Notes: generated by a model from the letters alone, not told the origin. 64,000 nt of DNA from Escherichia coli (GCF_050320075.1 NZ_CP190021.1); one strand, 5' to 3'. Counted from the first letter of the stretch, positions 1,953 through 38,140 are shown. Numbers and translations: made by a program.

Positions 1953-2003
1953 TGAACAACCACACCGCCCCGCCGGAGACGGGGCGGCAGAGGGAGAAAT
2001 ACG

Positions 2004-2441
2004 ATGATGAATACCGAACTGACACTGAATGCCCTGCAGTCCATGAATGCCCAGGAATATGAAGAAATCCGTGCTGCGGGAAGCGATATGCGCCGTAATC
2101 TCACTCACGAGGTGATGCGTAAAGTGGACGCACCGGCTAACTGGATGATGAACGGAGAGTATGGCAGCGAGTTCGGGGGCTTTTTCCCCGTCCAGGTTCG
2201 TTTCACGCCAGCCCACGAACGTTTCCACCTGGCATTATGTTCGCCGGGAGACGTCTCTCAGCTCTGGATGCTGGTTCTGGTGAATGGTGGTGGACAGCCT
2301 TTCGCCGTCGTTCAGGTGCAACATATCTTCACGCCTGCCGCGATCAGTCACACGCTGGCGCTTGCCGCGACACTGGATGCGCAGGGATACAGTGTTAACG
2401 ACATCATCCATATCCTGATGGCAGAAGGAGGTCAGGCATGA
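2004..2441 (+). CDS. psiB: plasmid SOS inhibition protein PsiB
   Basis: 145-aa product closely matches recalled PsiB sequence ([40 protein letters not shown]); correct size and position. Confidence 0.9.
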
Positions 2442-3157
2442 GCGCACGTTCACGGGCACTGATCCCCCTCAGCGCAGAACAACAGGCCGCCATGCAGGCG
2501 GTGGCTGTCACAGAACAACGTCGTCGTCAGGGACGCACACTTTCAGCATGGCCTTATGCCACCGCTTTCTTTCGCTGCCTGAATGGCAGTCGCCGGATTT
2601 CGCTGACCGATCTCCGCTTTTTTGCCCCTGCGCTGACGAAGGAGGAATTTCATGGCAACCGTCTCCTGTGGCTGGCTGCCGTGGATAAACTGATTGAAAG
2701 TTTTGGGGAAGTCTGTGTTCTTCCCCTGCCATCCGATGCGGGGCACCGTCTGTTCCCGTCCGTGCCTTTTCGTGAAGGTGAGCGTCGTCGTCAGAAAACC
2801 ACGCTGACAGAGCAGAAATACAGCCGCCAGCGGGAACGTGAGGCAGAACGACGGGAACTGGAATACCAGACATGTTTTGCTCAGGCGCAGATTGACCTTG
2901 CGTTTCATACTCCCGCCACGGTCGGAAGCTGGTTGTCCCGCTGGTCTGGTGTTGTTGAGGAGCATGATCTGGAAACGATTTTCTGGGGGTGGTGCGGGCG
3001 TTTTCCATCACTGTCATCATTTGACCGGTTTTTCTGGCAGGAGGAACCACTCTGGCGGCTGATTTTTGAAGCCGGTGAGGCCGGTCGTGGTGCACCGGTA
3101 CAGGTACGTGCACTTGAGCAGTGGATGATCCCGAACAAGCTGGAGAACGTAATATGA
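2438..3157 (+). CDS. psiA: PsiA protein
   Basis: 239 aa, start overlaps psiB stop (coupled), typical psiB-psiA arrangement and size. Confidence 0.8.
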
Positions 3158-3750
3158 TGAAATCAGACGAAAAATACCAGGTTCCCGCGTGGATGCGACC
3201 TCTGTTGCCGTTGCTCTGCAACACCGGGGGGAACGATCCGGAAGAACTGCTGAATGATACAGAAACCACTGCCAGTGCGAATGTTGTCCGTTATGTACTG
3301 ATAGTTGCTGTGCGGTCGCAGGTTGATCTGCTGCAGCTTCTGTACAGGAAAGGGCTGTTGCGCACAGAGATACCAGGTGGCTTTTCACCGGAAGAAGCGC
3401 AGGCACTCCTGGATAATCTGGTGCGCAGCCATATCAGCAAGGCGCTGTCGGGCGAGCGAATGGCAGCCCGTGACAGAAATGCCGATCTGGCCTGGATTGG
3501 ACAGCAACTGGTCGATGACGCCTGGTTTGTCCGTGCCACACTGGAAGCGCATGGGATGAGCGTCGGAAATGAGAGTCCCCCTGCTCCGCCGGAGACAATG
3601 CCGGACATACAGACACGGGAACTGGTGATGTTGATCAAGCGACTGGCATCATCGCTGAAAGCGGTGAAACCGGACAGTTGTGTGGTGCGTGAAGCGCAGG
3701 ACTGGCTGCGCGACAGAAAACTTGTGGATATCACAGATATTCTCCGGTGA
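3154..3750 (+). CDS. hypothetical leading-region protein, translationally coupled to psiA
   Basis: ATGA overlap with psiA stop at 3154-3157; GGAG RBS upstream; 198 aa; no recognisable motif. Confidence 0.55.
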   Translation: MMKSDEKYQVPAWMRPLLPLLCNTGGNDPEELLNDTETTASANVVRYVLIVAVRSQVDLLQLLYRKGLLRTEIPGGFSPEEAQALLDNLVRSHISKALSGERMAARDRNADLAWIGQQLVDDAWFVRATLEAHGMSVGNESPPAPPETMPDIQTRELVMLIKRLASSLKAVKPDSCVVREAQDWLRDRKLVDITDILR

Positions 3751-4211
3751 ACCAGGCATGTATATTTTACGCAGGGACACGCCGATCATGATCGTTTCAT
3801 ATCAGGGGTGGTCTGGAGGTCATGCGGCGTGTCCTCTGCACTCGCCGGAATAAGGAAGTCGCCGGCGGCTCCGCTTTTACCCGGCCATGCGGGGCATGGC
3901 CTTGTGGGGTTTCAGCTCTGTGGCCTCAGCGTCGTGTGCGGGCTGTGCCGTGCCTCCATCTTAGCCGGGCTGGCAGGGATGCAAGGGTACGCTTCGCCGC
4001 TGCGGTCACCCGGTCCCTCCTTCCCGTCTGCCGTGATTTTCCGGTCGTTCGTCCGCTCAGGTTTCGCGGCCTCACCCTGCAACTCCCGTCAGCCGTGTGC
4101 GTCAGGCTGCGGCTTCCCTTGCGCCCCTGCATCCCCGCCTTATCGCCCGGCTTTTATGGAGGCACGGCACCGCCCGGTGTCGCAGAACATGTGACTATGG
4201 AGGATTCGGGA

Positions 4212-4712
4212 ATGTCTGTTGTTGCACCTGCTGTATACGTTGGAACCTGGCACAAATACAACTGTGGAAGCATCGCCGGACGCTGGTTTGACCTGACCAC
4301 GTTTGATGATGAGCGCGACTTTTTCGCCGCCTGCCGTGCTCTTCACCAGGATGAAGCCGATCCTGAACTGATGTTTCAGGATTATGAGGGATTCCCGGGG
4401 AATATGGCCTCTGAATGCCATATCAACTGGGCCTGGGTTGAAGGCTTCCGCCTGGCACGGGATGAAGGCTGCGAAGAGGCTTATCGTCTCTGGGTGGAGG
4501 ATACCGGTGAGACGGATTTTGACACCTTCCGCGATGCCTGGTGGGGCGAGGCTGACAGTGAGGAGGCTTTTGCGGTTGAGTTCGCCAGTGATACCGGCCT
4601 GCTGGCTGACGTGCCGGAGACGGTGGCGCTCTATTTTGACTATGAGGCGTATGCGCGGGATTTATTCCTGGACTCCTTCACCTTTATTGACGGTCATGTG
4701 TTCCGTCGGTGA
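4212..4712 (+). CDS. ardA: antirestriction protein ArdA (166 aa, acidic DNA-mimic family)
   Basis: Start at ATG 4212 after GGAGGA RBS; sequence [36 protein letters not shown] and acidic composition match ArdA; the longer track ORF 3822-4712 is an Arg/Pro-rich artefact of the GC-rich leader. Confidence 0.85.
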
Positions 4713-7488: not shown

Positions 7489-7740
7489 TCACACATCCTC
7501 TGCCGTTTCCCCCAGTTCATTTTCCAGTCGCCTGATGATATCTGCCTTACGCATCCCCTGCATGTGAGGCAGCAGGTCACGGACTGAAAGTGCCTGGGTG
7601 GTCCTCCAGACGGTGACGTCCACCTGTTCCGCATTTTCCCAGGCGTGCCATGTTCTCTGCGTCACGCCAAATTCTCTGGCCGCTTTTTCGCGTGACCAGA
7701 GCATGCTTTTTCGCCAGATTCGCAGTTCCCAGCCGGTCAT
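7489..7740 (-). CDS. small HTH DNA-binding regulator (83 aa)
   Basis: HTH-like segment REKAAREFGVTQRTWHAWE; promoter region carries twin palindromes. Confidence 0.6.
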   Translation of the reverse strand: MTGWELRIWRKSMLWSREKAAREFGVTQRTWHAWENAEQVDVTVWRTTQALSVRDLLPHMQGMRKADIIRRLENELGETAEDV

Positions 7741-7754
7741 AAAACACCTTTGAA

Positions 7755-7775
7755 AAAGTGAAAAAACTTCACTTT
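7755..7775. promoter_or_regulatory. palindromic operator-like site AAAGTGAA-N5-TTCACTTT (copy 1)
   Basis: Perfect 8-5-8 inverted repeat just upstream of the HTH gene start. Confidence 0.6.
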
Positions 7776-7821
7776 ATTTTATCATCACAATTGCCAAATC
7801 AGCGCGATAAATAAGTGTAAA

Positions 7822-7842
7822 AAAGTGAAGAAATTTCACTTT
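7822..7842. promoter_or_regulatory. palindromic operator-like site AAAGTGAA-N5-TTCACTTT (copy 2)
   Basis: Second identical 8-5-8 inverted repeat 67 bp from copy 1. Confidence 0.6.
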
Positions 7843-7956
7843 TTTTGCTTGTAAATGTCGTGCGGTTTTCTCTGTTTTCACCTGTGCGGGAGTGGTGTGC
7901 CAGTGACCACCACATGCCATTGTTGTGCCGTCGTTTTTCTTCAGTCGCGCCGTATG

Positions 7957-8275
7957 CGGCGCTCCCTGCACACCTTACGGTGTGTAAGGCCACTGCGCCT
8001 GATGGCGCAGCTGTCTCTGCCTGTCTGCCGCCGCACTGCGGCCTGTTCTCCGCAGACGGACTTTCCGGGGGTACATACATGACCACATCCCGTTTCAGTC
8101 GTCCAGGGGGGAGATGTACCAGCCACAAAACTTTTTGCCGCAGGCGTCAAAAACTTTTGCGTCTGCCCCCGGACAACTGCCCCGTGACGTGGTGAGCGTC
8201 CCCCGTCGGAAAGGTCCACTGCGGGGAAATCCCCGAAGACCCGGACGGCAGAAGGAGCTTCGCTCCTCCGGGAAA
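7957..8275 (-). promoter_or_regulatory. conserved structured non-coding element, copy 2
   Basis: Homologous to 5079-5395; directly upstream of ORF 8317. Confidence 0.5.
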
Positions 8276-8316
8276 TGACCTGGCTGTCCCGGCAGTCGTG
8301 ACGATGAGGAGACAAT

Positions 8317-9168
8317 GTGATGAATCAGACTTTACCCACTGCTGACCTGAATACTGCCGGCACGACAGATGTTATTCCGTCTGTGGCTATCGACCGCATC
8401 ATCGCGCAGCGTAACGAAGGTATTGCACTGTTCATGCAGGCGATGGAATGCCTGGCGACAGCGCGCAAGATTCTGCTCGATGCGTCAGGTGATATTTTTC
8501 TTTACGGGTTTGAAGACTGCGTGACTGATTCCGTTCGTCGCATAGATAAACCGGAAGAAGCGAAAAGGAATATCACCCGTCTTGCCGACCGGAAAATCTG
8601 GGACCGCCTGATGACAGATACGGGCATGTACACCTTCATGAGTTCATGCCAGCGTGATGAGTGGAACAGCCAGCTGATGAGCGACACCTGTCCTGAAATC
8701 ACCCTGGACAATGTACTGGCAACATTCCGCCATCTGAATGCCTGCAAGATGCAGACATTTGAACAGGGACTGATTGATGTCTACCGGAAATTGTCATGGG
8801 ATTACAGAACCAATAATCCCTGCCGTCTGGGTAAGAAAATCATTATTGAAAACCTGCTGTACCGCTGGAGTAACGGGCGTGTGACGCTGGACTGCAGCGG
8901 ACGGGAGGCACTGGATGACCTGGTACGTCCGTTTTATCTGCTGGAGGGGCGCAACGTTCCTGACTTCAGGAACAGTATCGGGGCGCAGTATGGTGAATTT
9001 CTCGGGAACGGCGACAATGTCGGTAAGCTGTTAGAAGGGGAATATTTTACGGTGCGTGGCTACCAGAAAGGGACCGTACACATTGTCTTTAAGCGTTCTG
9101 ACCTTGTTGAAAAACTGAATGATATTATTGCACGGCATTATCCAGGTGCATTGCCGCCACGAGTCTGA
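8317..9168 (+). CDS. hypothetical protein (283 aa), last + strand gene of the leading region before oriT
   Basis: ORF with AGGAGA RBS; adjacent GTG and ATG candidate starts at 8317 and 8320; no confidently recognised domain. Confidence 0.6.
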   Translation: MMNQTLPTADLNTAGTTDVIPSVAIDRIIAQRNEGIALFMQAMECLATARKILLDASGDIFLYGFEDCVTDSVRRIDKPEEAKRNITRLADRKIWDRLMTDTGMYTFMSSCQRDEWNSQLMSDTCPEITLDNVLATFRHLNACKMQTFEQGLIDVYRKLSWDYRTNNPCRLGKKIIIENLLYRWSNGRVTLDCSGREALDDLVRPFYLLEGRNVPDFRNSIGAQYGEFLGNGDNVGKLLEGEYFTVRGYQKGTVHIVFKRSDLVEKLNDIIARHYPGALPPRV

Positions 9169-9180
9169 TTAAACAGAAAA

Positions 9181-9210
9181 GCCCTGGTATTTATGCCGGG
9201 GCTTTTTTTT
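9181..9210 (+). terminator. Rho-independent terminator after ORF 8317
   Basis: Hairpin gccctgg-tatttat-gccggggc followed by T8. Confidence 0.7.
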
Positions 9211-9253
9211 CTGTAATCATCATAATCTCAGAACACGATGTGACATTGTCACA

Positions 9254-9595
9254 TCAATTGTTGTTCATATCGATGCCATCTTTCCTGCCTGAATCTGTCT
9301 TTTTAGGTGCTGTTTTAGAGGAAGAACGGCGGGATGGTTTTTTCGATTCTGCTTCCCGAATAATGTCACGAAGTGCCTTCTCTCCTACTTCATACCCTGC
9401 ATTTTTGAGCGTGTCACGAACATCTGCCAGTGTATAACCCTTTGTCCTTACCAGGACAATAATGTCATCACGAATGGCATCAAGAAAATCACGCAATGTT
9501 TTCCGTTGAGCGGTGAGATCTGGCAATTCCGATAAAGCAGCTTTTGCCAGCTGGATGTCATCATCTGAGTAAAATTTTTTAGAAGCCATTGGCAC
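9254..9595 (-). CDS. hypothetical protein with Lys/Arg/Ser-rich basic C-terminal tail (113 aa), possible DNA-binding protein, directly beside oriT
   Basis: ORF on the opposite strand to the other leading-region genes; basic tail ESKKPSRRSSSKTAPKKTDSGRK. Confidence 0.5.
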   Translation of the reverse strand: MPMASKKFYSDDDIQLAKAALSELPDLTAQRKTLRDFLDAIRDDIIVLVRTKGYTLADVRDTLKNAGYEVGEKALRDIIREAESKKPSRRSSSKTAPKKTDSGRKDGIDMNNN

Positions 9596-9647
9596 TTTCT
9601 CTCCGTTTCATGTTGAAGTCTGATTTTATCATCAAAAACTGACTCCT

Positions 9648-9776
9648 GGCAGGGCTGCGCCCTGCCTCTGCCGTCTGCATAAGACTATGATGCACAAAAA
9701 TAACAGGCTATAATGGCCTGAAAAACGGGACAGGATGTGCAATTGTATAACCGCGCACGCGCGATTATACAATTGC
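9648..9776. promoter_or_regulatory. oriT: origin of transfer (oriT) with predicted nick site on the - strand
   Basis: Inverted repeat ggcagggc-tgc-gccctgcc (9648-9666); 12-bp inverted-repeat arms gcaattgtataa/ttatacaattgc (9739-9776); minus-strand core CATCCTG/TCCCG resembling IncP/IncI nick regions, placing the nick near 9730/9731. Confidence 0.7.
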
Positions 9777-9821
9777 CTCCTGGTCAGGGCTTCGCCCCGA
9801 CACCCCAGTAAGGAGCTGACC

Positions 9822-10154
9822 GTGAGTGATAAACGTCAAAGAAGTGGTAGTGAAAGACGGCAAAAGACGATCCTGAGAGCGGTCCGGTTCTCACCGGATG
9901 AGGATGAAACTATCTGTAAGAATGCTGAAGATTCCGGACTTACTGTATCTGCTTACATCCGAAATGCAGCACTGAATAAGCGAATTAACTCCCGTACAGA
10001 TGATGCTTTTCTGAAGGAGTTAATGAGACTGGGAAGGATGCAGAAGCATCTGTTTGTTCAGGGAAAAAGAACCGGTGACAAGGAATACGCAGAAGTGCTT
10101 GTTGCCATAACCGAACTTACAAATACATTGCGTAAACAGTTAATGGAAGGTTGA
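9822..10154 (+). CDS. nikA: relaxosome accessory protein NikA (ribbon-helix-helix, 110 aa)
   Basis: GTG start after AAGGAG RBS, next to oriT and upstream of the relaxase; expected size. Confidence 0.8.
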   Translation: MSDKRQRSGSERRQKTILRAVRFSPDEDETICKNAEDSGLTVSAYIRNAALNKRINSRTDDAFLKELMRLGRMQKHLFVQGKRTGDKEYAEVLVAITELTNTLRKQLMEG

Positions 10155-10164
10155 GGATTCTCCG

Positions 10165-12864
10165 GTGAATGCAGTCATTCCGAAAAAGAGAAGGGACGGC
10201 AAGTCTTCGTTCGAAGACCTGGTATCCTACGTCTCTGTCCGGGATGACATGACCGATGAGGAACTGGATTTATCTTCTTCTTCGCAGGCTGAACAACCGC
10301 ACCGAAGCCGTTTCAGTCGCCTTGTTGATTATGCGACACGTCTTCGAAATGAGTCATTCGTGGCGCTGGTTGATGTCATGAAGGACGGCTGCGAATGGGT
10401 CAACTTTTATGGTGTCACCTGCTTTCATAACTGTACTTCTCTTGAAACTGCCGCTGCAGATATGGAGTACATTGCCCGGCAGGCACACTATGCAAAAGAT
10501 GACACTGACCCTGTTTTTCACTACATCCTTTCCTGGCAGTCACATGAAAGCCCGCGTCCGGAACAGATTTATGACAGTGTACGTCATACGCTGAAATCAC
10601 TCGGCCTTGCCGACCATCAGTATGTCTCTGCCGTGCATACTGATACAGATAATCTGCACGTCCATGTGGCTGTTAACCGGGTACACCCTGAAACGGGTTA
10701 TCTGAACCGGTTATCATGGAGTCAGGAAAAACTCAGTCGTGCCTGCCGTGAGCTTGAACTGAAGCATGGTTTTGCTCCGGATAACGGTTGCTGGGTCCAT
10801 GCGCCGGGAAATCGTATCGTTCGCAAAACTGCCGTTGAACGTGATCGCCAGAACGCCTGGACACGCGGAAAAAAACAAACTTTTCGTGAGTATGTTGCGC
10901 AGACAGCGGTCGCTGGTTTACGCAGTGAACCTGTACATGACTGGTTATCCCTGCATCGTCGTCTTGCGGAAGATGGTCTGTACCTGTCTCAGATGGACGG
11001 AAAATTTCTGGTGATGGATGGCTGGGATCGCAACAGGGAAGGTGTACAGCTTGACTCGTTTGGTCCCTCCTGGTGTGCAGAAAAACTCATGAAAAAAATG
11101 GGTGACTACACGCCAGTGCCAAAAGACATTTTCAGCCAGGTGGAAGCACCAGGACGCTATAATCCGGACTTCATTGCAGCTGATGTTCGCCCGGAAAAAA
11201 TCGCTGAAACAGAAAGTCTGCAGCAGTATGCCTGTCGTCATCTTGGAGAACGTCTGCCGGAAATGGCACGGGAAGGACGGCTGGAAAACTGCCTGGCTAT
11301 TCACCGCACACTGGCTGAAGCGGGATTATGGATGCGTGTTCAGCATGGTCACCTGGTTATCTGTGACGGTTATGATCATAACCAGACTCCCGTTCGTGCT
11401 GACAGCGTATGGTCACTGCTGACGCTCGACAATGTGAATCAACTCGATGGTGGCTGGCAGCCTGTACCAACAGATATTTTCCGCCAGGTTACGCCAACAG
11501 AACGCTTCCGTGGTCGTCGTATGGAGAGCTGTCCTGCGACCGATAAAGAATGGCACCGTATGCGTACAGGTACGGGGCCGCAGGGGGCTATCAAACGCGA
11601 ACTGTTTTCTGACAAAGAAAGTCTGTGGGGATACAGCATCAGCCATTGTAGCCCTCAGATTGAAGAAATGATCACACAGGGTGAGTTTACCTGGCAGCGT
11701 TGTCATGAGTTGTTTGCACAACAGGGACTGATGCTACAGAAACAACATCACGGGCTTGTTGTCGTTGATGCTTTTAATCATGAGCAAACGCCGGTGAAAG
11801 CCAGCAGCATTCATCCTGATCTGACACTGGGGCGTGCGGAGCCACAGGCCGGACCTTTTGTGAGTGCTCCAGCAGATTTGTTTGACAGGGTGCAACCTGA
11901 AAATCGCTATAACCCGGAGCTGGCTGTCAGTGACAGGTACGGGGTCAGCAGTAAACGTGACCCAATGCTGCGCCGGCAGCGACGTGAAGCCAGGGCTGAG
12001 GCCCGTGCTGACCTGCGTGCCCGCTATCTGGCATGGCGTGAACAATGGCGTAAACCGGATCTGCGTTATGGGGAACGTTGTCGGGAAATTCATCAGGCAT
12101 GCCGTCTGCGGAAGTCACACATTCGTGCGCAGTACGATGATCCGGCATTACGTAAGCTGCATTATCACATTGCAGAAGTTCAGCGAATGCAGGCATTGAT
12201 CAGGCTGAAAGAAGACATCAGGGATGAGCGACAGAAACTTATTGCTGACGGGAAATGGTATCCACCCTCTTACCGTCAGTGGGTCGAAATTCAGGCTGCT
12301 CAGGGAGACAGGGCTGCTGTATCGCAGTTGAGAGGCTGGGATTATCGCGATCGCCGTAAAGACAAGTCACGCACAACGACGACAGACCGCTGTGTCGTGC
12401 TTTGTGAACCGGGCGGAACGCCGGTATACGGTAATACCGGTGATCTCGAGGCCCGTCTGCAGAAGAACGGGAGTGTTCGTTTCCGTGACCGTCGGACGGG
12501 AGAGTTTGTCTGTACGGATTATGGTGACAGAGTTGTTTTCCGTAATCACCATGACCGCAATGCGCTGGCAGATAAACTGGATTTGATTGCACCGGTATTA
12601 TTCGGGCGTGATCCACGCATGGGGTTTGAACCAGAAGGAAACGACAAACAATTTAACCAGGTCTTTGCTGAAATGGTTGCCTGGCATAATGTGACAGGCC
12701 GTACCGGTCACGAAGACTACAGGATTACGCGACCGGACGTGGATCATCACCGTGAAGGAAGTGAACGCTACTACCGCGATTATATCGCGGCGAACAGCAA
12801 CGATGACGCATCACTGCCTCCGCCGGAGCAGGATAAACGCTGGGAACCGCCTTCTCCAGGTTAA
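10165..12864 (+). CDS. nikB: conjugative relaxase NikB (899 aa)
   Basis: Relaxase histidine triad HTDTDNLHVHVAVN; size and position match the IncI1 relaxase. Confidence 0.9.
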   Translation: MNAVIPKKRRDGKSSFEDLVSYVSVRDDMTDEELDLSSSSQAEQPHRSRFSRLVDYATRLRNESFVALVDVMKDGCEWVNFYGVTCFHNCTSLETAAADMEYIARQAHYAKDDTDPVFHYILSWQSHESPRPEQIYDSVRHTLKSLGLADHQYVSAVHTDTDNLHVHVAVNRVHPETGYLNRLSWSQEKLSRACRELELKHGFAPDNGCWVHAPGNRIVRKTAVERDRQNAWTRGKKQTFREYVAQTAVAGLRSEPVHDWLSLHRRLAEDGLYLSQMDGKFLVMDGWDRNREGVQLDSFGPSWCAEKLMKKMGDYTPVPKDIFSQVEAPGRYNPDFIAADVRPEKIAETESLQQYACRHLGERLPEMAREGRLENCLAIHRTLAEAGLWMRVQHGHLVICDGYDHNQTPVRADSVWSLLTLDNVNQLDGGWQPVPTDIFRQVTPTERFRGRRMESCPATDKEWHRMRTGTGPQGAIKRELFSDKESLWGYSISHCSPQIEEMITQGEFTWQRCHELFAQQGLMLQKQHHGLVVVDAFNHEQTPVKASSIHPDLTLGRAEPQAGPFVSAPADLFDRVQPENRYNPELAVSDRYGVSSKRDPMLRRQRREARAEARADLRARYLAWREQWRKPDLRYGERCREIHQACRLRKSHIRAQYDDPALRKLHYHIAEVQRMQALIRLKEDIRDERQKLIADGKWYPPSYRQWVEIQAAQGDRAAVSQLRGWDYRDRRKDKSRTTTTDRCVVLCEPGGTPVYGNTGDLEARLQKNGSVRFRDRRTGEFVCTDYGDRVVFRNHHDRNALADKLDLIAPVLFGRDPRMGFEPEGNDKQFNQVFAEMVAWHNVTGRTGHEDYRITRPDVDHHREGSERYYRDYIAANSNDDASLPPPEQDKRWEPPSPG

Positions 12865-16273: not shown

Positions 16274-17482
16274 TCAGAATTCGTTGTCTGTAGCAGGTGT
16301 GCGGGGCAGGATGTCGTCGGTGAGGGACCAGTTGGTCAGGATGCGGCGTTTCCGGTCGCGATCTGGTTGTGGTTCATCCCAGATAAGACCGAGACTGAGC
16401 ATATCCCGCCGTAAGCCTTCCACCGCTTCATCAACACAGGGTTCAGGGCAGGGAAGGCCAAAACGCATGGCTTCGGCCTCTGCACGTGCAACGGCCACCA
16501 CGCCAGCGCCTTCAATAAATCCTTTCGTGGTATTGGCGCGGTGTAATGCATAAAACAGCGTCCTGTCCACGCCTTTCAGCCAAATCCAGTTGGGTGGCGT
16601 AAGCCGCAGGTCATGTGCATACAGCCAGACCAGCCCACTGCGGACGTAGCGATGTTGTTTCAGCCATTGCTGTGCTCCGTTGCTTTTAATCACTCTCTGG
16701 AAAGCTGATTTGGCCAGTGAATAAACAGGGGTACAGAATTTCCCACTGTCCCGTTTGCTTTTAATTCTGCATGAGAGGTTCAGTGTATCCATGAGCTTTA
16801 ATGCTGCCTTACGATCATCCAGGAAATACTGAAGACCAAATATGGCAAAGAGCGCTTTTTCATGTGGTGCCATGTCTTTCCAGGACGTTAAAGGTTTACC
16901 CAACTGGGCCATGAAACATCGTCTTGCAGCTGCAACATCGAGCTGCATATTGGTGATGAGAGTATGCTGCTCGACAAATGCTTCCGGGGTGAGAGCAACC
17001 CGCCGTTCAGGTCGTTTGCCACCATGAAAGAGTTTTTCCGGATCACCATCTGCCAGTACAGGGGCGATAGCAGGGGACAACGAAGCAAAGATGTATGGCA
17101 GGCGGGTAATATCTACTGGTCTGCGGGTGAAACGACTTTGTCCCGGATGTTGATACCACTCCCACAAACACCAGAGTGTCACAGGTAAGAGGTACATCCA
17201 CAGAATACCTATGGTCTGCTCCATGACGTTAACCCACTGGCTATAGCTTATGTTGGCGGCGTTGTTACCGGTCATGGCAAGCAGGTTGTATCGTGGTGCT
17301 GCATAGTTATGAAATGGTCCCCAGTCAACCAGTCCCCATAAGGTATGAAGAATCAGGCAGCTGGCGTAAACCACTTCCGGCAAGAATAACCATATAACGA
17401 ATAGCAGCAGGATAAGAAGGACACCAACAGCGCCCCATATCTGCATAGGATCTTCTGCGACAGGCTGTCGATTGTAAGACAT
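16274..17482 (-). CDS. trbA: TrbA inner-membrane protein (DotM/IcmP-like)
   Basis: 402 aa with N-terminal transmembrane helices; synteny. Confidence 0.75.
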   Translation of the reverse strand: MSYNRQPVAEDPMQIWGAVGVLLILLLFVIWLFLPEVVYASCLILHTLWGLVDWGPFHNYAAPRYNLLAMTGNNAANISYSQWVNVMEQTIGILWMYLLPVTLWCLWEWYQHPGQSRFTRRPVDITRLPYIFASLSPAIAPVLADGDPEKLFHGGKRPERRVALTPEAFVEQHTLITNMQLDVAAARRCFMAQLGKPLTSWKDMAPHEKALFAIFGLQYFLDDRKAALKLMDTLNLSCRIKSKRDSGKFCTPVYSLAKSAFQRVIKSNGAQQWLKQHRYVRSGLVWLYAHDLRLTPPNWIWLKGVDRTLFYALHRANTTKGFIEGAGVVAVARAEAEAMRFGLPCPEPCVDEAVEGLRRDMLSLGLIWDEPQPDRDRKRRILTNWSLTDDILPRTPATDNEF

Positions 17483-34336: not shown

Positions 34337-37300
34337 TCATCGGCCGGGGCTGTGGGAGAGATCCTGATGCAGAGTTTTTTCCTGCCTGTCCTCCGGCTTT
34401 TGGCTGTTGGACCACTGCTGCCATGACTGCTCGAAGCCCAGGTTCCGGTACAACGCATCAGGTTGTTTTTCCGGCGTGTAGACAGCAGCAAAAAGCGGTT
34501 CTTCCCGGGTTTTCAGATGAAACTGCATAAGCTCCGGTGCGGGGCGATTCGTGCTGTCAGCATCGTGGTTTACCGCTTCACCATAACCTGCAAAGCGTAA
34601 ACCTTTGTCGGTCAGCGCATTGATAACCAACTGACTGTTGTCGGCCGATGGGGTGGCCAGTGCCGGATACAATGTGCCGTTCAGCCGGACCACACCCTGC
34701 AGATGTTCATCGGCACTCTGGACAAGTAGCAGGTTGAGTTCACGCGTATCCTTATCCACTGATCCCAGAACAGGTGTCAGCTTGTCAGGGGCTGCGCTGG
34801 TTATTTCTGTTACCTGATTTGCGTTCTGTGGCGCGGAGACCGGATGTCGGTCTTCACCGATAAACAGATGTGAGCCGACGTTTTCTGGCATACGTAACGC
34901 TTTCATCTCTTCGGGCCACCCCTGGCTGATTTGCGCAGCCACTTTCATAAAGGTTTCGACCGGAATCGCCTGAATACGCTGACCTTTATCCGGATTATCA
35001 TGTGATACCGAGATCCCGTTGGTAACTGACTCCATGGACCACTTATTCCGGAAACGTGCTTTTTGCTCACCAGGGAGAATGAATTGTTCGCGGTTCTGAA
35101 GTGTCAGTGTCACCACGTCACCTTTCTGATGGTTTTTGACCAGACTTTCCAGTTGTTCCCCCCAGTAGAGTTTGCTGCCACTGCGGTTTTTAAGCTCAAC
35201 AAAGAAACTCTCTCCTTTGCCGGGTGCATATTCAGCACGACCAAAATTGTGCAGTACGGCAGTCACGCTCTCTCCCGGGCGAAGTTTTCCTGGTGGTTCT
35301 TCACCTTGTGCCGCATCTGCCGTTTTGCCAGGTTCAGCCGGTGATGATGCAGGGACGGTGCTGACGGTTGATGCTTCAGGGGCAACTGGGGACGCCGGGG
35401 ATTGTGTGGCTTCTTTTTCCTGAACGGGGTCAGGGACAACCGGTTGTTCAGGGGTATTCCGGTTAAGTTCCGGCGTTGGCTGATGGGTGACAACAGCATC
35501 CTTACCGACAGCCATTTCCTTACGTAATGTATCGAGCTCCAGACGCTGATCAGCGTGTTTCATGCGCACATTGATGTTGTGCTCGATAATCAACCGCATC
35601 GCTTTTTGCTTAAAGGCATCACTGCCTGTCAGCTCAATGACGCCACCATAGAAATTAGTGGCCACAGCAAGTGCGGCCAGAACACTGCGATCGTCATTGC
35701 TGGCACCGTCGACCATTTCCAGCCGGTTTACCCGGTCAATGAAGGCTGGTTTGCCATCCAGCTTGTACAGGACGGTTCTGTCTGCTCGTTTTTCACCCTT
35801 CAGTGATTTTATGATTTCGTCCAGATTAAGCGATATCGGTGCATCAGGACGTTCCGGGGCGTAGACAATACTGTCAGGTGTCGGTGTGGTCGTCGTGGTT
35901 TCCGGTGAGGGCGTGGGATCACTGTTCTCATGTGCCTGTGAATCCGTTTTTTTACGCGTAAAAAAGCCACGCGCTTTGTCGAGAAACGATGAAGTATTAT
36001 CAGAAGGTGATGTGCTCTGAACAGGTTGCTGTGGATTGGGTTCATCCCGGACAGCCGGTTCTGCAGTATCTGTTGTGGCCTGAAGTTCTGACTCATCTGC
36101 CTGAACGTGGTCTGTGTCCGGTTGCGACGGCATATCACTGTTTTCCTGCAGATGCTCAGGATTTTCATTGTTCATCAGCTCCTGATATGCGCTGTAGTTT
36201 TCGTATTCTTCGGGGCCATCTGACTCAGGAAGGAACGGCTCTGGCTGAAGGGGAATGTCTTCAGTTACATGGCTGACCGCCTCTTCCCGGGGAGTATCCG
36301 GGGATATTCCGGTGCTTTGTTTGTCATCAGGCTCCGTCATCACGGTCATTTCCTCTTTGACTGCATCAGGGGAAGGTGATGGCTCGGCTGATTCATTCAT
36401 GGTTTCAGATGAGGGACTGTCTTCAGGGGATGCGGGGGCGGCAGCAGGGGCCGGTATTTCAGGTGAAGTGCCGGATTCCTGTTGTGACTCGTTTTTTTCC
36501 GGTTGTGACAGTTCGGCTTCAAATTCACGCCAGTCTTTATCTGTGGCCACCGAGACAACTTTTTCCGGAGGTTCCGCCGGATGAGCGGGTTCATCAGGGG
36601 CAGATGCCGTTGTACTTTCCGGGGACGCCGGTGATTCTGCAGGGGAGTCCTGAACTACAGAGCTTTCCGTTTGCGCCTGAACGTTATCAGCGTGCCGCTC
36701 ATCTTTGCCGTTATTTTCAGTGGCGTGACTGGTAAATGACTGTGTTTCGTCAGCAATGTTACTGCTGGAAGCAGCTGGTTGTTCCTGCTGCGTGGCGGAC
36801 GGCAGAGAAGGTCCCTGGTCATGGCTGTGCCCTGTATCGGGTGATGTTTCAGGATATTCTGTCGGAGTCATGGTTTTTTCCTCAGTGTGGACCGGTGTAA
36901 AAACGAGGTTGCCGATCACCAGTGCCTCGCGGATTTCCGGGGTGTTACTGTTGGGGGTGGAAACCCCGATGTGTTCTAACTGGGCGTTGATGACATGCTG
37001 AAAAGCGGCCCGTCCCCGGCTTGCGTCCAGGTCATTGAAATCGGTCAGCCCCTGCGCTTTTTCGGCATCGGTGAACGCAGGAAAGATGACCGTTCCTCCT
37101 GTCAGTTCTGCGGCTTTTGTTGCACTGACGATACCTTTGTTAACCCGGATTGCATGATCGTTGTCGGCACAGAAGATAAAGGGGCTTTGCGTCCACTTTT
37201 GCCGGGCATTTTCGGCAACGGCAATCATGTTGCCTCCATCCACCGTCATCAGTACCGGAAGGCCCGTGGCTTCGTGCAGGGAGGCCGCAGTGGCATAGCC

Positions 37301-38140
37301 CTCGGCAAACAGTACCGGCTGACCGTTGCGCGGTGTGCCCAGCGCAAACCAGTTACCGGTTTTCTCTGAATCTTTCAGGATGCGGGCATCCTTCCCCCCG
37401 GTGACCGGAATACGCTGGTAAGAGCGTATCGCGCCGTTACGGTTACTGAAGGGAATAACCAGTTCATTTTTGTTGTTTACCCGCACCCCCGGTGCAGCCT
37501 GAATGCCTTTCCGGGTCAGGTATTCATGTGCTGTGGCCTGCGGCCATTTGTTGACATAGCGGCGGGCATACGCGGCCTGTCGGTTGTACTGTGCTTTCAG
37601 TTCCCGCTCCGCGTCCTCCCTGCGTTGCATTGAATGCGCTTTCAGGTGGAGTCTTGCGCGGGGATCTGTCTGTTCTCCGCCGGAGAAGGTCCAGGTGATC
37701 GGCGAATCATCCGCGCTGCGATAATCCCTGTACCAGCCGGCAGGTCTGCCGTCCAGGAATCCGCGATATGCGCCACTTTTTTGTCCTTTTTTGTCATCGG
37801 CAGTCGGGACACGGTGGATTTTCCCGTCCATGACCGGCAGTTCTTTCAGAACCAGTCCGGCATTCTCCAGAACCTGGGCAAACTCGGTGACCGGATCACT
37901 GCCGTTCATGGAGACGTCCTGTGGCCGGGGCAGCCAGCGGTCCAGCCTGGACAGGTCCGCCCCCGGGCGGGCGAACCAGAGTTTGTGCTCCTTGTCCCAG
38001 ATGACGGGCGTGTGCCCGTTCATCGGGGGATGTGCTTTTTTGAGATCTTCTATTTCATCTGCAGGCACGGCAAGCCAGGTGCGGTAGCGGGATACAGACG
38101 GCATGAGTGCTTCTCCTGAAAAAAGACGGAAAAAAACCAC
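34337..38140 (-). CDS. sog: Sog DNA primase (SogL, 1267 aa) with Toprim primase domain and long acidic Pro/Ser/Thr/Glu-rich linker
   Basis: Primase motifs (LFAEGYATAASL, DGGNM, CADNDHA); about 450 aa of low-complexity acidic sequence; position between traL and traK. Confidence 0.9.
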   Translation of the reverse strand: MVFFRLFSGEALMPSVSRYRTWLAVPADEIEDLKKAHPPMNGHTPVIWDKEHKLWFARPGADLSRLDRWLPRPQDVSMNGSDPVTEFAQVLENAGLVLKELPVMDGKIHRVPTADDKKGQKSGAYRGFLDGRPAGWYRDYRSADDSPITWTFSGGEQTDPRARLHLKAHSMQRREDAERELKAQYNRQAAYARRYVNKWPQATAHEYLTRKGIQAAPGVRVNNKNELVIPFSNRNGAIRSYQRIPVTGGKDARILKDSEKTGNWFALGTPRNGQPVLFAEGYATAASLHEATGLPVLMTVDGGNMIAVAENARQKWTQSPFIFCADNDHAIRVNKGIVSATKAAELTGGTVIFPAFTDAEKAQGLTDFNDLDASRGRAAFQHVINAQLEHIGVSTPNSNTPEIREALVIGNLVFTPVHTEEKTMTPTEYPETSPDTGHSHDQGPSLPSATQQEQPAASSSNIADETQSFTSHATENNGKDERHADNVQAQTESSVVQDSPAESPASPESTTASAPDEPAHPAEPPEKVVSVATDKDWREFEAELSQPEKNESQQESGTSPEIPAPAAAPASPEDSPSSETMNESAEPSPSPDAVKEEMTVMTEPDDKQSTGISPDTPREEAVSHVTEDIPLQPEPFLPESDGPEEYENYSAYQELMNNENPEHLQENSDMPSQPDTDHVQADESELQATTDTAEPAVRDEPNPQQPVQSTSPSDNTSSFLDKARGFFTRKKTDSQAHENSDPTPSPETTTTTPTPDSIVYAPERPDAPISLNLDEIIKSLKGEKRADRTVLYKLDGKPAFIDRVNRLEMVDGASNDDRSVLAALAVATNFYGGVIELTGSDAFKQKAMRLIIEHNINVRMKHADQRLELDTLRKEMAVGKDAVVTHQPTPELNRNTPEQPVVPDPVQEKEATQSPASPVAPEASTVSTVPASSPAEPGKTADAAQGEEPPGKLRPGESVTAVLHNFGRAEYAPGKGESFFVELKNRSGSKLYWGEQLESLVKNHQKGDVVTLTLQNREQFILPGEQKARFRNKWSMESVTNGISVSHDNPDKGQRIQAIPVETFMKVAAQISQGWPEEMKALRMPENVGSHLFIGEDRHPVSAPQNANQVTEITSAAPDKLTPVLGSVDKDTRELNLLLVQSADEHLQGVVRLNGTLYPALATPSADNSQLVINALTDKGLRFAGYGEAVNHDADSTNRPAPELMQFHLKTREEPLFAAVYTPEKQPDALYRNLGFEQSWQQWSNSQKPEDRQEKTLHQDLSHSPGR

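Follow-up and report, generated by a model that had tools for sequence, protein, structure and literature searches.

Sog, the primase of IncI1-type conjugative plasmids, carries a net-acidic, predicted disordered region that its short isoform retains

The stretch of Escherichia coli DNA analysed here (GCF_050320075.1, NZ_CP190021.1; 64,000 nucleotides (nt), further referred to as the window) carries on its minus strand sog, the primase gene of an IncI1-type conjugative plasmid, which encodes a long product, SogL, and a short one, SogS, started inside the same frame. Our analysis of this gene supports a genuine intrinsically disordered, net-acidic region at SogL residues 403–741, as judged from structure prediction and composition. 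This region, called region A below, separates the primase domain of SogL from its C-terminal half, and the start of SogS is placed at its N-terminal edge. We see an even chance that region A works through its bulk properties (flexibility, charge and the absence of any need for unfolding) and not through a specific sequence. The features on which this view is based are the following:

34337–38104, minus strand: sog coding sequence, assigned by identity to deposited records, encoding SogL of 1255 amino acids (aa) and including the TGA stop at 34337–34339
35882–36898, minus strand: acidic region A, SogL 403–741, 339 aa, predicted to be intrinsically disordered from composition, the predicted local distance difference test score (pLDDT) and charge-hydropathy
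34337–36871, minus strand: SogS frame, 844 aa, comprising region A, the LPD7 domain, linker B and the C-terminal module, with the start ATG at 36869–36871 corresponding to M412 of SogL
36879–36883, minus strand: internal GAGGA Shine-Dalgarno sequence, 7 nt upstream of the SogS ATG

In a sliding-window profile, region A has sharp limits. It contains 72 aspartate and glutamate against 16 lysine and arginine residues, giving a net charge of -56, or -0.165 per residue, and the isoelectric point (pI) computed for a slightly wider segment (SogL 403–758) is 4.05. Proline, glutamate, aspartate, serine, threonine and glutamine (P/E/D/S/T/Q) make up about 64% of the region, while W/F/Y/I/L/V/M/C account for 13% of it as compared to 27–34% in the domains. 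In a scan of 340-aa windows along the protein, the lowest net charge was -59 versus -32 ± 4.6 in shuffles of the same protein (z -5.9), the hydrophobic minimum had a z of -6.7 and the P/E/D/S/T/Q maximum a z of +12.8; none of the 2000 shuffles matched the observed window values. AlphaFold2, run on SogS with an alignment of 41 sequences, gave a pLDDT of 34–46 and almost no secondary structure over SogS 1–330, compared to 85–96 in the flanking domains. The charge-hydropathy plot classes region A (hydropathy H 0.360, below the boundary of 0.473) and linker B as disordered, and the three remaining segments as folded. It is because these two independent proxies agree that we regard the disorder of region A as supported.

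An earlier note on this DNA had described a linker of about 450 aa, acidic and disordered, and had proposed disorder and charge predictions as a check. The predictions given above agree with it in that the acidic low-complexity stretch is real and its disorder is predicted, but its length is 339 aa, and the span that had been assigned to the linker (35400–36900, about 500 aa) contains, in addition to region A, the folded LPD7 domain and part of linker B. The terms “highly acidic” and “polyanionic” were too strong: acidic residues constitute 21% of the region, aspartate and glutamate form runs of two residues at most, the 10-mer richest in acidic residues contains five of them, and the charges are dispersed, being spread more evenly than at random (z -2.9).

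Region A is, judging by the reading frame, not only a tether of the primase. Its description as a linker between the Toprim primase and the C-terminal domain is correct for SogL, where it lies between them, and is incomplete for SogS, of which it represents the N-terminal third. The 844-aa length counted from the ATG at 36869–36871 matches SogS of R64 (SogL 1255 aa, SogS 844 aa; PMC6112013) and the annotation of pESBL (SogS 7629–10160, SogL 7629–11393; PMC4288162). Methionine occupies the column of the SogS start in 22 of 41 homologues, and in approximately seven more it occurs within two residues. The GAGGA-N7-ATG arrangement is also present in two other loci (L010 and L011), the proteins of which are about 25% identical and which are both located in syntenic I-type transfer clusters; in the IncB/O/K/Z plasmids the methionine is kept, with a weaker GAGAA upstream. 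The GAGGA of the internal start is supplied by Glu-Glu or Glu-Asp codons themselves. For the IncM Pri protein, a potential C-terminal product of 689 aa was reported (PMC6112013). If region A were only a tether, the short product could begin next to LPD7; since it does not, region A would appear to be more than a tether. The position of the internal start, retained at the N-terminal border of region A and not beside LPD7, suggests that the short isoform has been selected to carry this region.

The comparison with related plasmids concerns both the sequence and the gross composition of region A. Between IncI1 and IncB/O/K/Z, the identity amounts to 76% in the primase, 67% in LPD7 and 64% in the C-terminal module, versus 28% with 100 gap columns in region A. 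Among 100 homologues from the I-complex, the region is between 186 and 482 aa in length, with a charge per residue of -0.10 to -0.165 and a P/E/D/S/T/Q fraction of 0.56 to 0.65. With the LPD7-to-C-terminus part as a query, 250 relatives were found among 1.8 billion cluster representatives, and in all 41 of those that also possess the primase domain (cluster representatives about 28–66% identical) the segment between the primase and LPD7 is net negative (-10 to -65), at lengths of 82–771 aa. In the longest of these segments, which probably include additional domains, the compositional bias is weaker.

The same five-part architecture, cluster position and internal start at the border are found in Sog of IncB/O/K/Z (1343–1353 aa) and in Pri of IncL/M (pCTX-M3, 1070 aa). 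The disordered region of IncB/O/K/Z, however, is 227–482 aa long, unrelated in sequence, and composed of repeats of about 74 aa (z 15–21), by the gain and loss of which its length changes. In region A of the IncI1 protein, repeats were found neither at the DNA level nor at the protein level (ungapped window scan, z 0.4), and tandem or internal repeats were rejected as its origin for this reason. The presence of repeats in one group and their absence in the other suggest that two unrelated sequence histories have reached the same bulk properties. Among IncI1 alleles, the ratio of nonsynonymous to synonymous substitution rates (dN/dS) is 0.3–0.9 in region A; in the primase it is 0.12–0.39, with most values under 0.2, and in LPD7 it does not exceed 0.27, which indicates a relaxed constraint on the individual residues of region A. 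A conservation scan of region A by 12-mers against 26 homologues returned only low-complexity matches and the strand at the LPD7 edge. Judged from these alignments, the pattern of divergent sequence and length with steady composition is typical of a disordered region acting through bulk properties.

Two short elements inside region A were considered as possible motifs:

36509–36541, minus strand: predicted short helix DKDWREFEAEL, SogL 522–532, a weak linear-motif candidate
35945–35992, minus strand: basic/aromatic island SSFLDKARGFFTRKKT, SogL 705–720, the sole basic cluster of region A, predicted to be helical

In the first of them, a helix is predicted at low pLDDT for SogS 115–118 (by DSSP also 111–113); it aligns with DDWSAFAEDL in IncB/O with borderline conservation and is deleted in the natural short IncB/O/K forms. 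In the second, the predicted helix covers SogS 296–305 (pLDDT about 54), its IncB/O counterpart is SLFSRLRRFLTGVKSRT, and the island is missing from the natural IncI1 variants P0003 and P0004. The helices DKDWREFEAEL and FLDKARGFFT were rejected as functional motifs, being borderline within the I-complex, absent further out and lost in natural deletions.

From the predicted disorder, the charge, the conservation pattern and the conserved internal start, we infer the following functional consequences. In SogL, region A would flexibly tether the basic primase to LPD7 and the OB-like (oligonucleotide/oligosaccharide-binding) C-terminal module, which together may hold the transfer-essential portion of the gene; in SogS, the same chain would form an N-terminal acidic tail of 330 residues. 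The negative charge would keep the chain expanded, soluble and non-adhesive to DNA, and the flexibility would let the primase reach its template while the C-terminal module is anchored. A chain that is already unfolded would incur no cost of unfolding when Sog is exported in bulk by the I-type (Dot/Icm-like) system.

This export is known from the literature only, which in this respect bears out the earlier note: Sog reaches the recipients in hundreds of copies and independently of DNA (PMC8406263, PMC7213743, PMC6112013). Reports on the need for sog conflict. Deletion of the gene in R64 decreased transfer about 10-fold (PMC6112013), whereas in a transposon screen of pESBL the SogS part was scored as required for transfer and a quarter of SogL as non-essential (PMC4288162). 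Since insertions are polar within the open reading frame (ORF), this screen says nothing on region A itself. No discussion of the acidic region was found in a literature search that did not include the primary Sog papers.

The conflict just mentioned is one of several points that weigh against the function proposed here, which is based on bulk properties. Natural in-frame deletions of the IncI1 type remove SogL 622–733 (112 aa) and 567–734 (168 aa), the latter in a closed record of 79.8 kb whose transfer cluster is intact, and a recurrent IncB/O/K form, which occurs on at least 11 contigs, has a deletion of 189 aa. If these plasmids are assumed to transfer, such large deletions mean that much of the length of region A is not strictly needed. 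Moreover, a net-negative composition rich in P/S/T/E may be the default of disordered regions in the bacterial cytosol, in which case the constant charge would be weak evidence for selection on charge.

As to the variation in length itself, variants occur among P0003, P0004, P0018, P0026, P0070 and locus L013 (8001–11264). In IncB/O/K/Z they comprise the 189-aa deletion and a 74-aa insertion, both produced by loss or gain of repeat units. An attempt to count the short-linker IncB/O/K plasmids by their deletion junction was given up, as this junction falls within a repeat and has no diagnostic value.

This plasticity can also be read as a sign that region A is functionless filler, which expands and contracts by slippage and recombination and whose composition is simply the least harmful one for a DNA-associated cytosolic protein. 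The large natural deletions, the repeat units gained and lost in IncB/O/K/Z, the dN/dS values of up to 0.9 and the lack of a robust conserved motif all agree with it. What makes us consider it rather unlikely is that a net-negative segment of at least 82 aa has been preserved in all 41 distant homologues with the primase–LPD7 architecture, that every indel is in-frame, and that the internal start is kept at the edge of region A rather than beside LPD7.

The remaining explanations depend in part on the surroundings of region A, which are arranged as follows:

36935–38104, minus strand: N-terminal primase module, SogL 1–390, basic, pI about 9.3, recognised by Pfam and motif
35504–35872, minus strand: folded LPD7 domain, SogL 745–867 (PF18821, E 2.2e-13; pLDDT 87–96)
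35276–35500, minus strand: disordered linker B, SogL 869–943, 75 aa, P/S/A/E/T-rich, net charge -6
34382–35269, minus strand: C-terminal folded module, SogL 946–1241, predicted to consist mostly of beta structure in OB-like small barrels

By profile and motif, the N-terminus of SogL is a Toprim-type primase domain with predicted activity. Counted in the ORF from its GTG (see below), the Pfam scan detected DUF5710 at aa 20–71 (E 1.3e-8) and the Toprim region at aa 277–377, where Toprim_3 scores 23.4 bits (E 8.5e-5), under the Pfam cut-off of 27.2; the EGYATA motif is located at SogL 268–273 (window 37286–37303). The LPD7 domain includes a conserved N-terminal strand, IVYAPERPD, and linker B, which is mildly acidic, shows 47% identity to IncB/O with 24 gap columns. 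The C-terminal module is the most conserved part at the DNA level between I-complex plasmids. It matched no Pfam family, and its sequence gave no match when searched against solved structures; the best structural neighbours of its predicted small beta barrels are the OB-fold binders of single-stranded DNA LEF-3, SSB, PriB and RPA, an assignment of moderate confidence. The suggestion that LPD7 is shared with the plasmid relaxase was dropped, NikB having no LPD7 by Pfam or BLASTP. Inside LPD7, SogL 762–820 (window 35665–35841) has a weak match (E 1.2e-3, far under the cut-off) to the C-terminal end of the NCBIfam TraI/MobA(P) relaxase profile.

The predicted presence of OB-like barrels next to an acidic chain recalls the nucleic-acid-handling proteins in which acidic disordered tails are known, namely E. 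coli SSB, T4 gp32, T7 gp2.5 and HMGB1. By this analogy, region A could be an autoinhibitory or cooperativity-tuning tail that competes for the nucleic-acid-binding surfaces of the C-terminal module or of the primase domain. The basic character of the latter (pI 9.3), the occurrence of the acidic region in both isoforms and every homologue, and a speculation in the literature that Sog coats the transferred strand (PMC6112013) are in line with such a role. SSB, gp32 and gp2.5 combine OB-like barrels with a disordered acidic segment, as is predicted for Sog; in Sog, however, the region is 5–10 times longer, far exceeding the known regulatory tails, is internal or N-terminal, and is devoid of the conserved acidic tip motif of the SSB type, as only low-complexity matches in distant homologues were returned by the 12-mer scan. 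This explanation depends on the uncertain OB assignment, and we consider it unlikely.

An alternative role for the acidic chain in export comes from the gene context, since the window encodes a relative of the acidic-peptide receptor of the Legionella Dot/Icm system:

16274–17482, minus strand: trbA, homologue of DotM/IcmP from the coupling complex of the type IVB secretion system (T4BSS), given for context as a candidate acidic-peptide receptor

TrbA matches the solved chains of Legionella DotM/IcmP at E values of 2e-8 to 4e-7 and the NCBIfam profile NF033890 at E 1.7e-20 over residues 21–359 of 402, under the equivalog cut-off. The affinity of DotM for acidic, Glu-rich peptides of some 26 aa is sub-micromolar if the pI of the peptide is low (PMC5802825). 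Region A might thus be a multivalent, internal signal of the E-block type, which binds the DotM-like TrbA and drives the DNA-independent export of SogL and SogS. Consistent with this, of the 314 windows of 26 aa that region A comprises, 53 carry a net charge of -7 or lower, similarly to the binding peptides CegC3 (-8) and Lpg1663 (-7); the whole of region A is kept in both isoforms; and Sog is exported independently of DNA (PMC8406263). Region A and the Legionella E-blocks are both acidic, Glu-rich and unstructured, and belong to type IVB substrates in systems with a DotM homologue.

The differences, however, are considerable. The known E-blocks are short and located in the C-terminal 30 or so residues, while the 339-aa region A is internal or N-terminal, ends about 500 residues before the C-terminus and is less dense in glutamate (6 E and 2 D per 26 aa versus 8–10 E); the last 30 residues of Sog have a net charge of 0, so the C-terminus is not acidic. 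Among the binding arginines of DotM, only R314 is highly conserved in the homologues, and VDRR of DotM is replaced by VDRT in TrbA. In addition, the natural deletions remove a third to half of region A. A limited segment of sog is reportedly needed, to judge from the title alone of Narahara et al. 1997, which also speaks against this signal. We find such a signal rather improbable, and the version in which region A, as an internal multivalent E-block, would bring many copies of SogL and SogS to the secretion machine via TrbA is in our estimate quite improbable too. A secretion-related role would nonetheless fit the T4BSS context better than mimicry of DNA. If such loading via TrbA takes place, charge-based recognition of substrates by DotM-type proteins would predate effector secretion and would have originated in conjugation.

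Mimicry was the proposal of the earlier note, according to which region A could be a DNA mimic, or a polyanionic decoy, titrating restriction enzymes or DNA-binding defence proteins in the recipient. The window offers an established DNA-mimic protein for comparison:

4212–4712, plus strand: ardA, DNA-mimic anti-restriction gene, 166 aa, net charge -25 or -0.151 per residue, given for context

In charge per residue (-0.165 versus -0.151) and acidic fraction (0.21 versus 0.22), region A is close to this ArdA. For this reason, we rejected the argument that mimicry is excluded by charge density. Early action in the recipient, typical of ArdA and Ocr, would also be available to Sog, hundreds of copies of which arrive before any plasmid gene is expressed, and an anti-restriction role was suggested, as a conjecture, for the analogous transferred primase TraC1 (PMC7213743). 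However, ArdA and Ocr are compact folded mimics and need a rigid scaffold to set out their carboxylates in the manner of phosphates, whereas region A is, by prediction, without a fixed structure; D/E tracts are absent from it, its charges being dispersed, and no conserved charge spacing was seen in it. Its acidic positions are not conserved, and its length varies 2.5-fold within the I-complex. A Pfam scan of the whole protein gave only LPD7, DUF5710 and Toprim, with no family of the ArdA/Ocr type and no sequence or profile similarity to these proteins, and NCBIfam gave nothing relevant. The plasmid, moreover, already has ardA in its leading region, and a literature search found no report of restriction-enzyme inhibition by Sog. 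We consider mimicry to be very improbable.

The leading region, upstream of the transfer region, occupies approximately 2000–4712 of the window on the plus strand and contains psiB, psiA, ardA and a ParB-like gene. Their names are taken from the annotation of the identical record NZ_CP018625.1, and ArdA was translated directly from 4212–4712.

The identity of the gene is not in doubt. The mechanically defined ORF (34337–38140, minus strand, 1267 aa counted from the GTG at 38140) is sog, the primase gene of IncI1-type conjugative plasmids, which the earlier note had recognised as known: in DNA sequence it agrees fully (100% identity) with NZ_CP018625.1 and to 98.2% with a gene annotated as “SogL DNA primase” in LC567099.1, and at a DNA identity of 93% or higher it is present in more than 1300 plasmid records. 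In LC567099.1, the start lies 36 nt inside the GTG ORF. It corresponds to the SogL start at the ATG 38102–38104, 12 codons inside this ORF, which gives 1255 aa and is preceded by its own ribosome-binding site:

38113–38117, minus strand: AGGAG Shine-Dalgarno sequence for the SogL start

SogL and SogS of R64 and ColIb-P9 have the same gene, cluster position, product lengths and EGYATA/Toprim primase, with no material difference from those described here. The computed masses are 138 kDa for SogL and 92 kDa for SogS; on gels, the Sog polypeptides presumably ran at about 210 and 160 kDa when first described, and a difference of this kind would be compatible with an acidic disordered region. The order of the neighbours is traJ, traK, nuc, sog, traL, traM (DotI-like) and traN (DotH-like), so that sog is set in an I-type (Dot/Icm-like) transfer cluster between nuc/traK and traL; the synteny within I-type transfer clusters is kept among the relatives.

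A comparison of the gene (window 34340–38104) with four other loci (L001, L006, L007 and L008) revealed a synonymous divergence among IncI1 sog alleles of up to 0.42–0.49 in the primase and LPD7, 0.02–0.07 in region A and not more than 0.03 in the C-terminal module. This points to a mosaic structure of the alleles, in which the primase and LPD7 segments have been exchanged between lineages by recombination; it is mainly by such exchange that the present allele would differ from other IncI1 alleles. sogS is one of the five loci used in plasmid multilocus sequence typing of IncI1 (PMC2887853).

Several ORFs of 80–124 aa overlap the DNA of region A (window 35800–37050) on the plus strand and in another frame of the minus strand. 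They coincide with a strongly skewed base composition (AT skew down to -0.32) and are most likely by-products of the biased codon content, not genes.

The gene is thus already known and the feature is real; the acidic region, seen in every Sog sequence, is an ordinary descriptive property of a well-known gene, the understanding of which is unchanged. Its interest is related to the place of Sog in conjugation. IncI1 plasmids are major carriers of resistance genes, and Sog belongs to the small group of proteins for which delivery from donor into recipient cells by a conjugation machine is established. About a quarter of this protein is a disordered acidic chain, which is retained by the conserved short isoform, and this bears on the way in which a substrate of very high abundance is selected and threaded by the type IVB system, as well as on the role of SogS.

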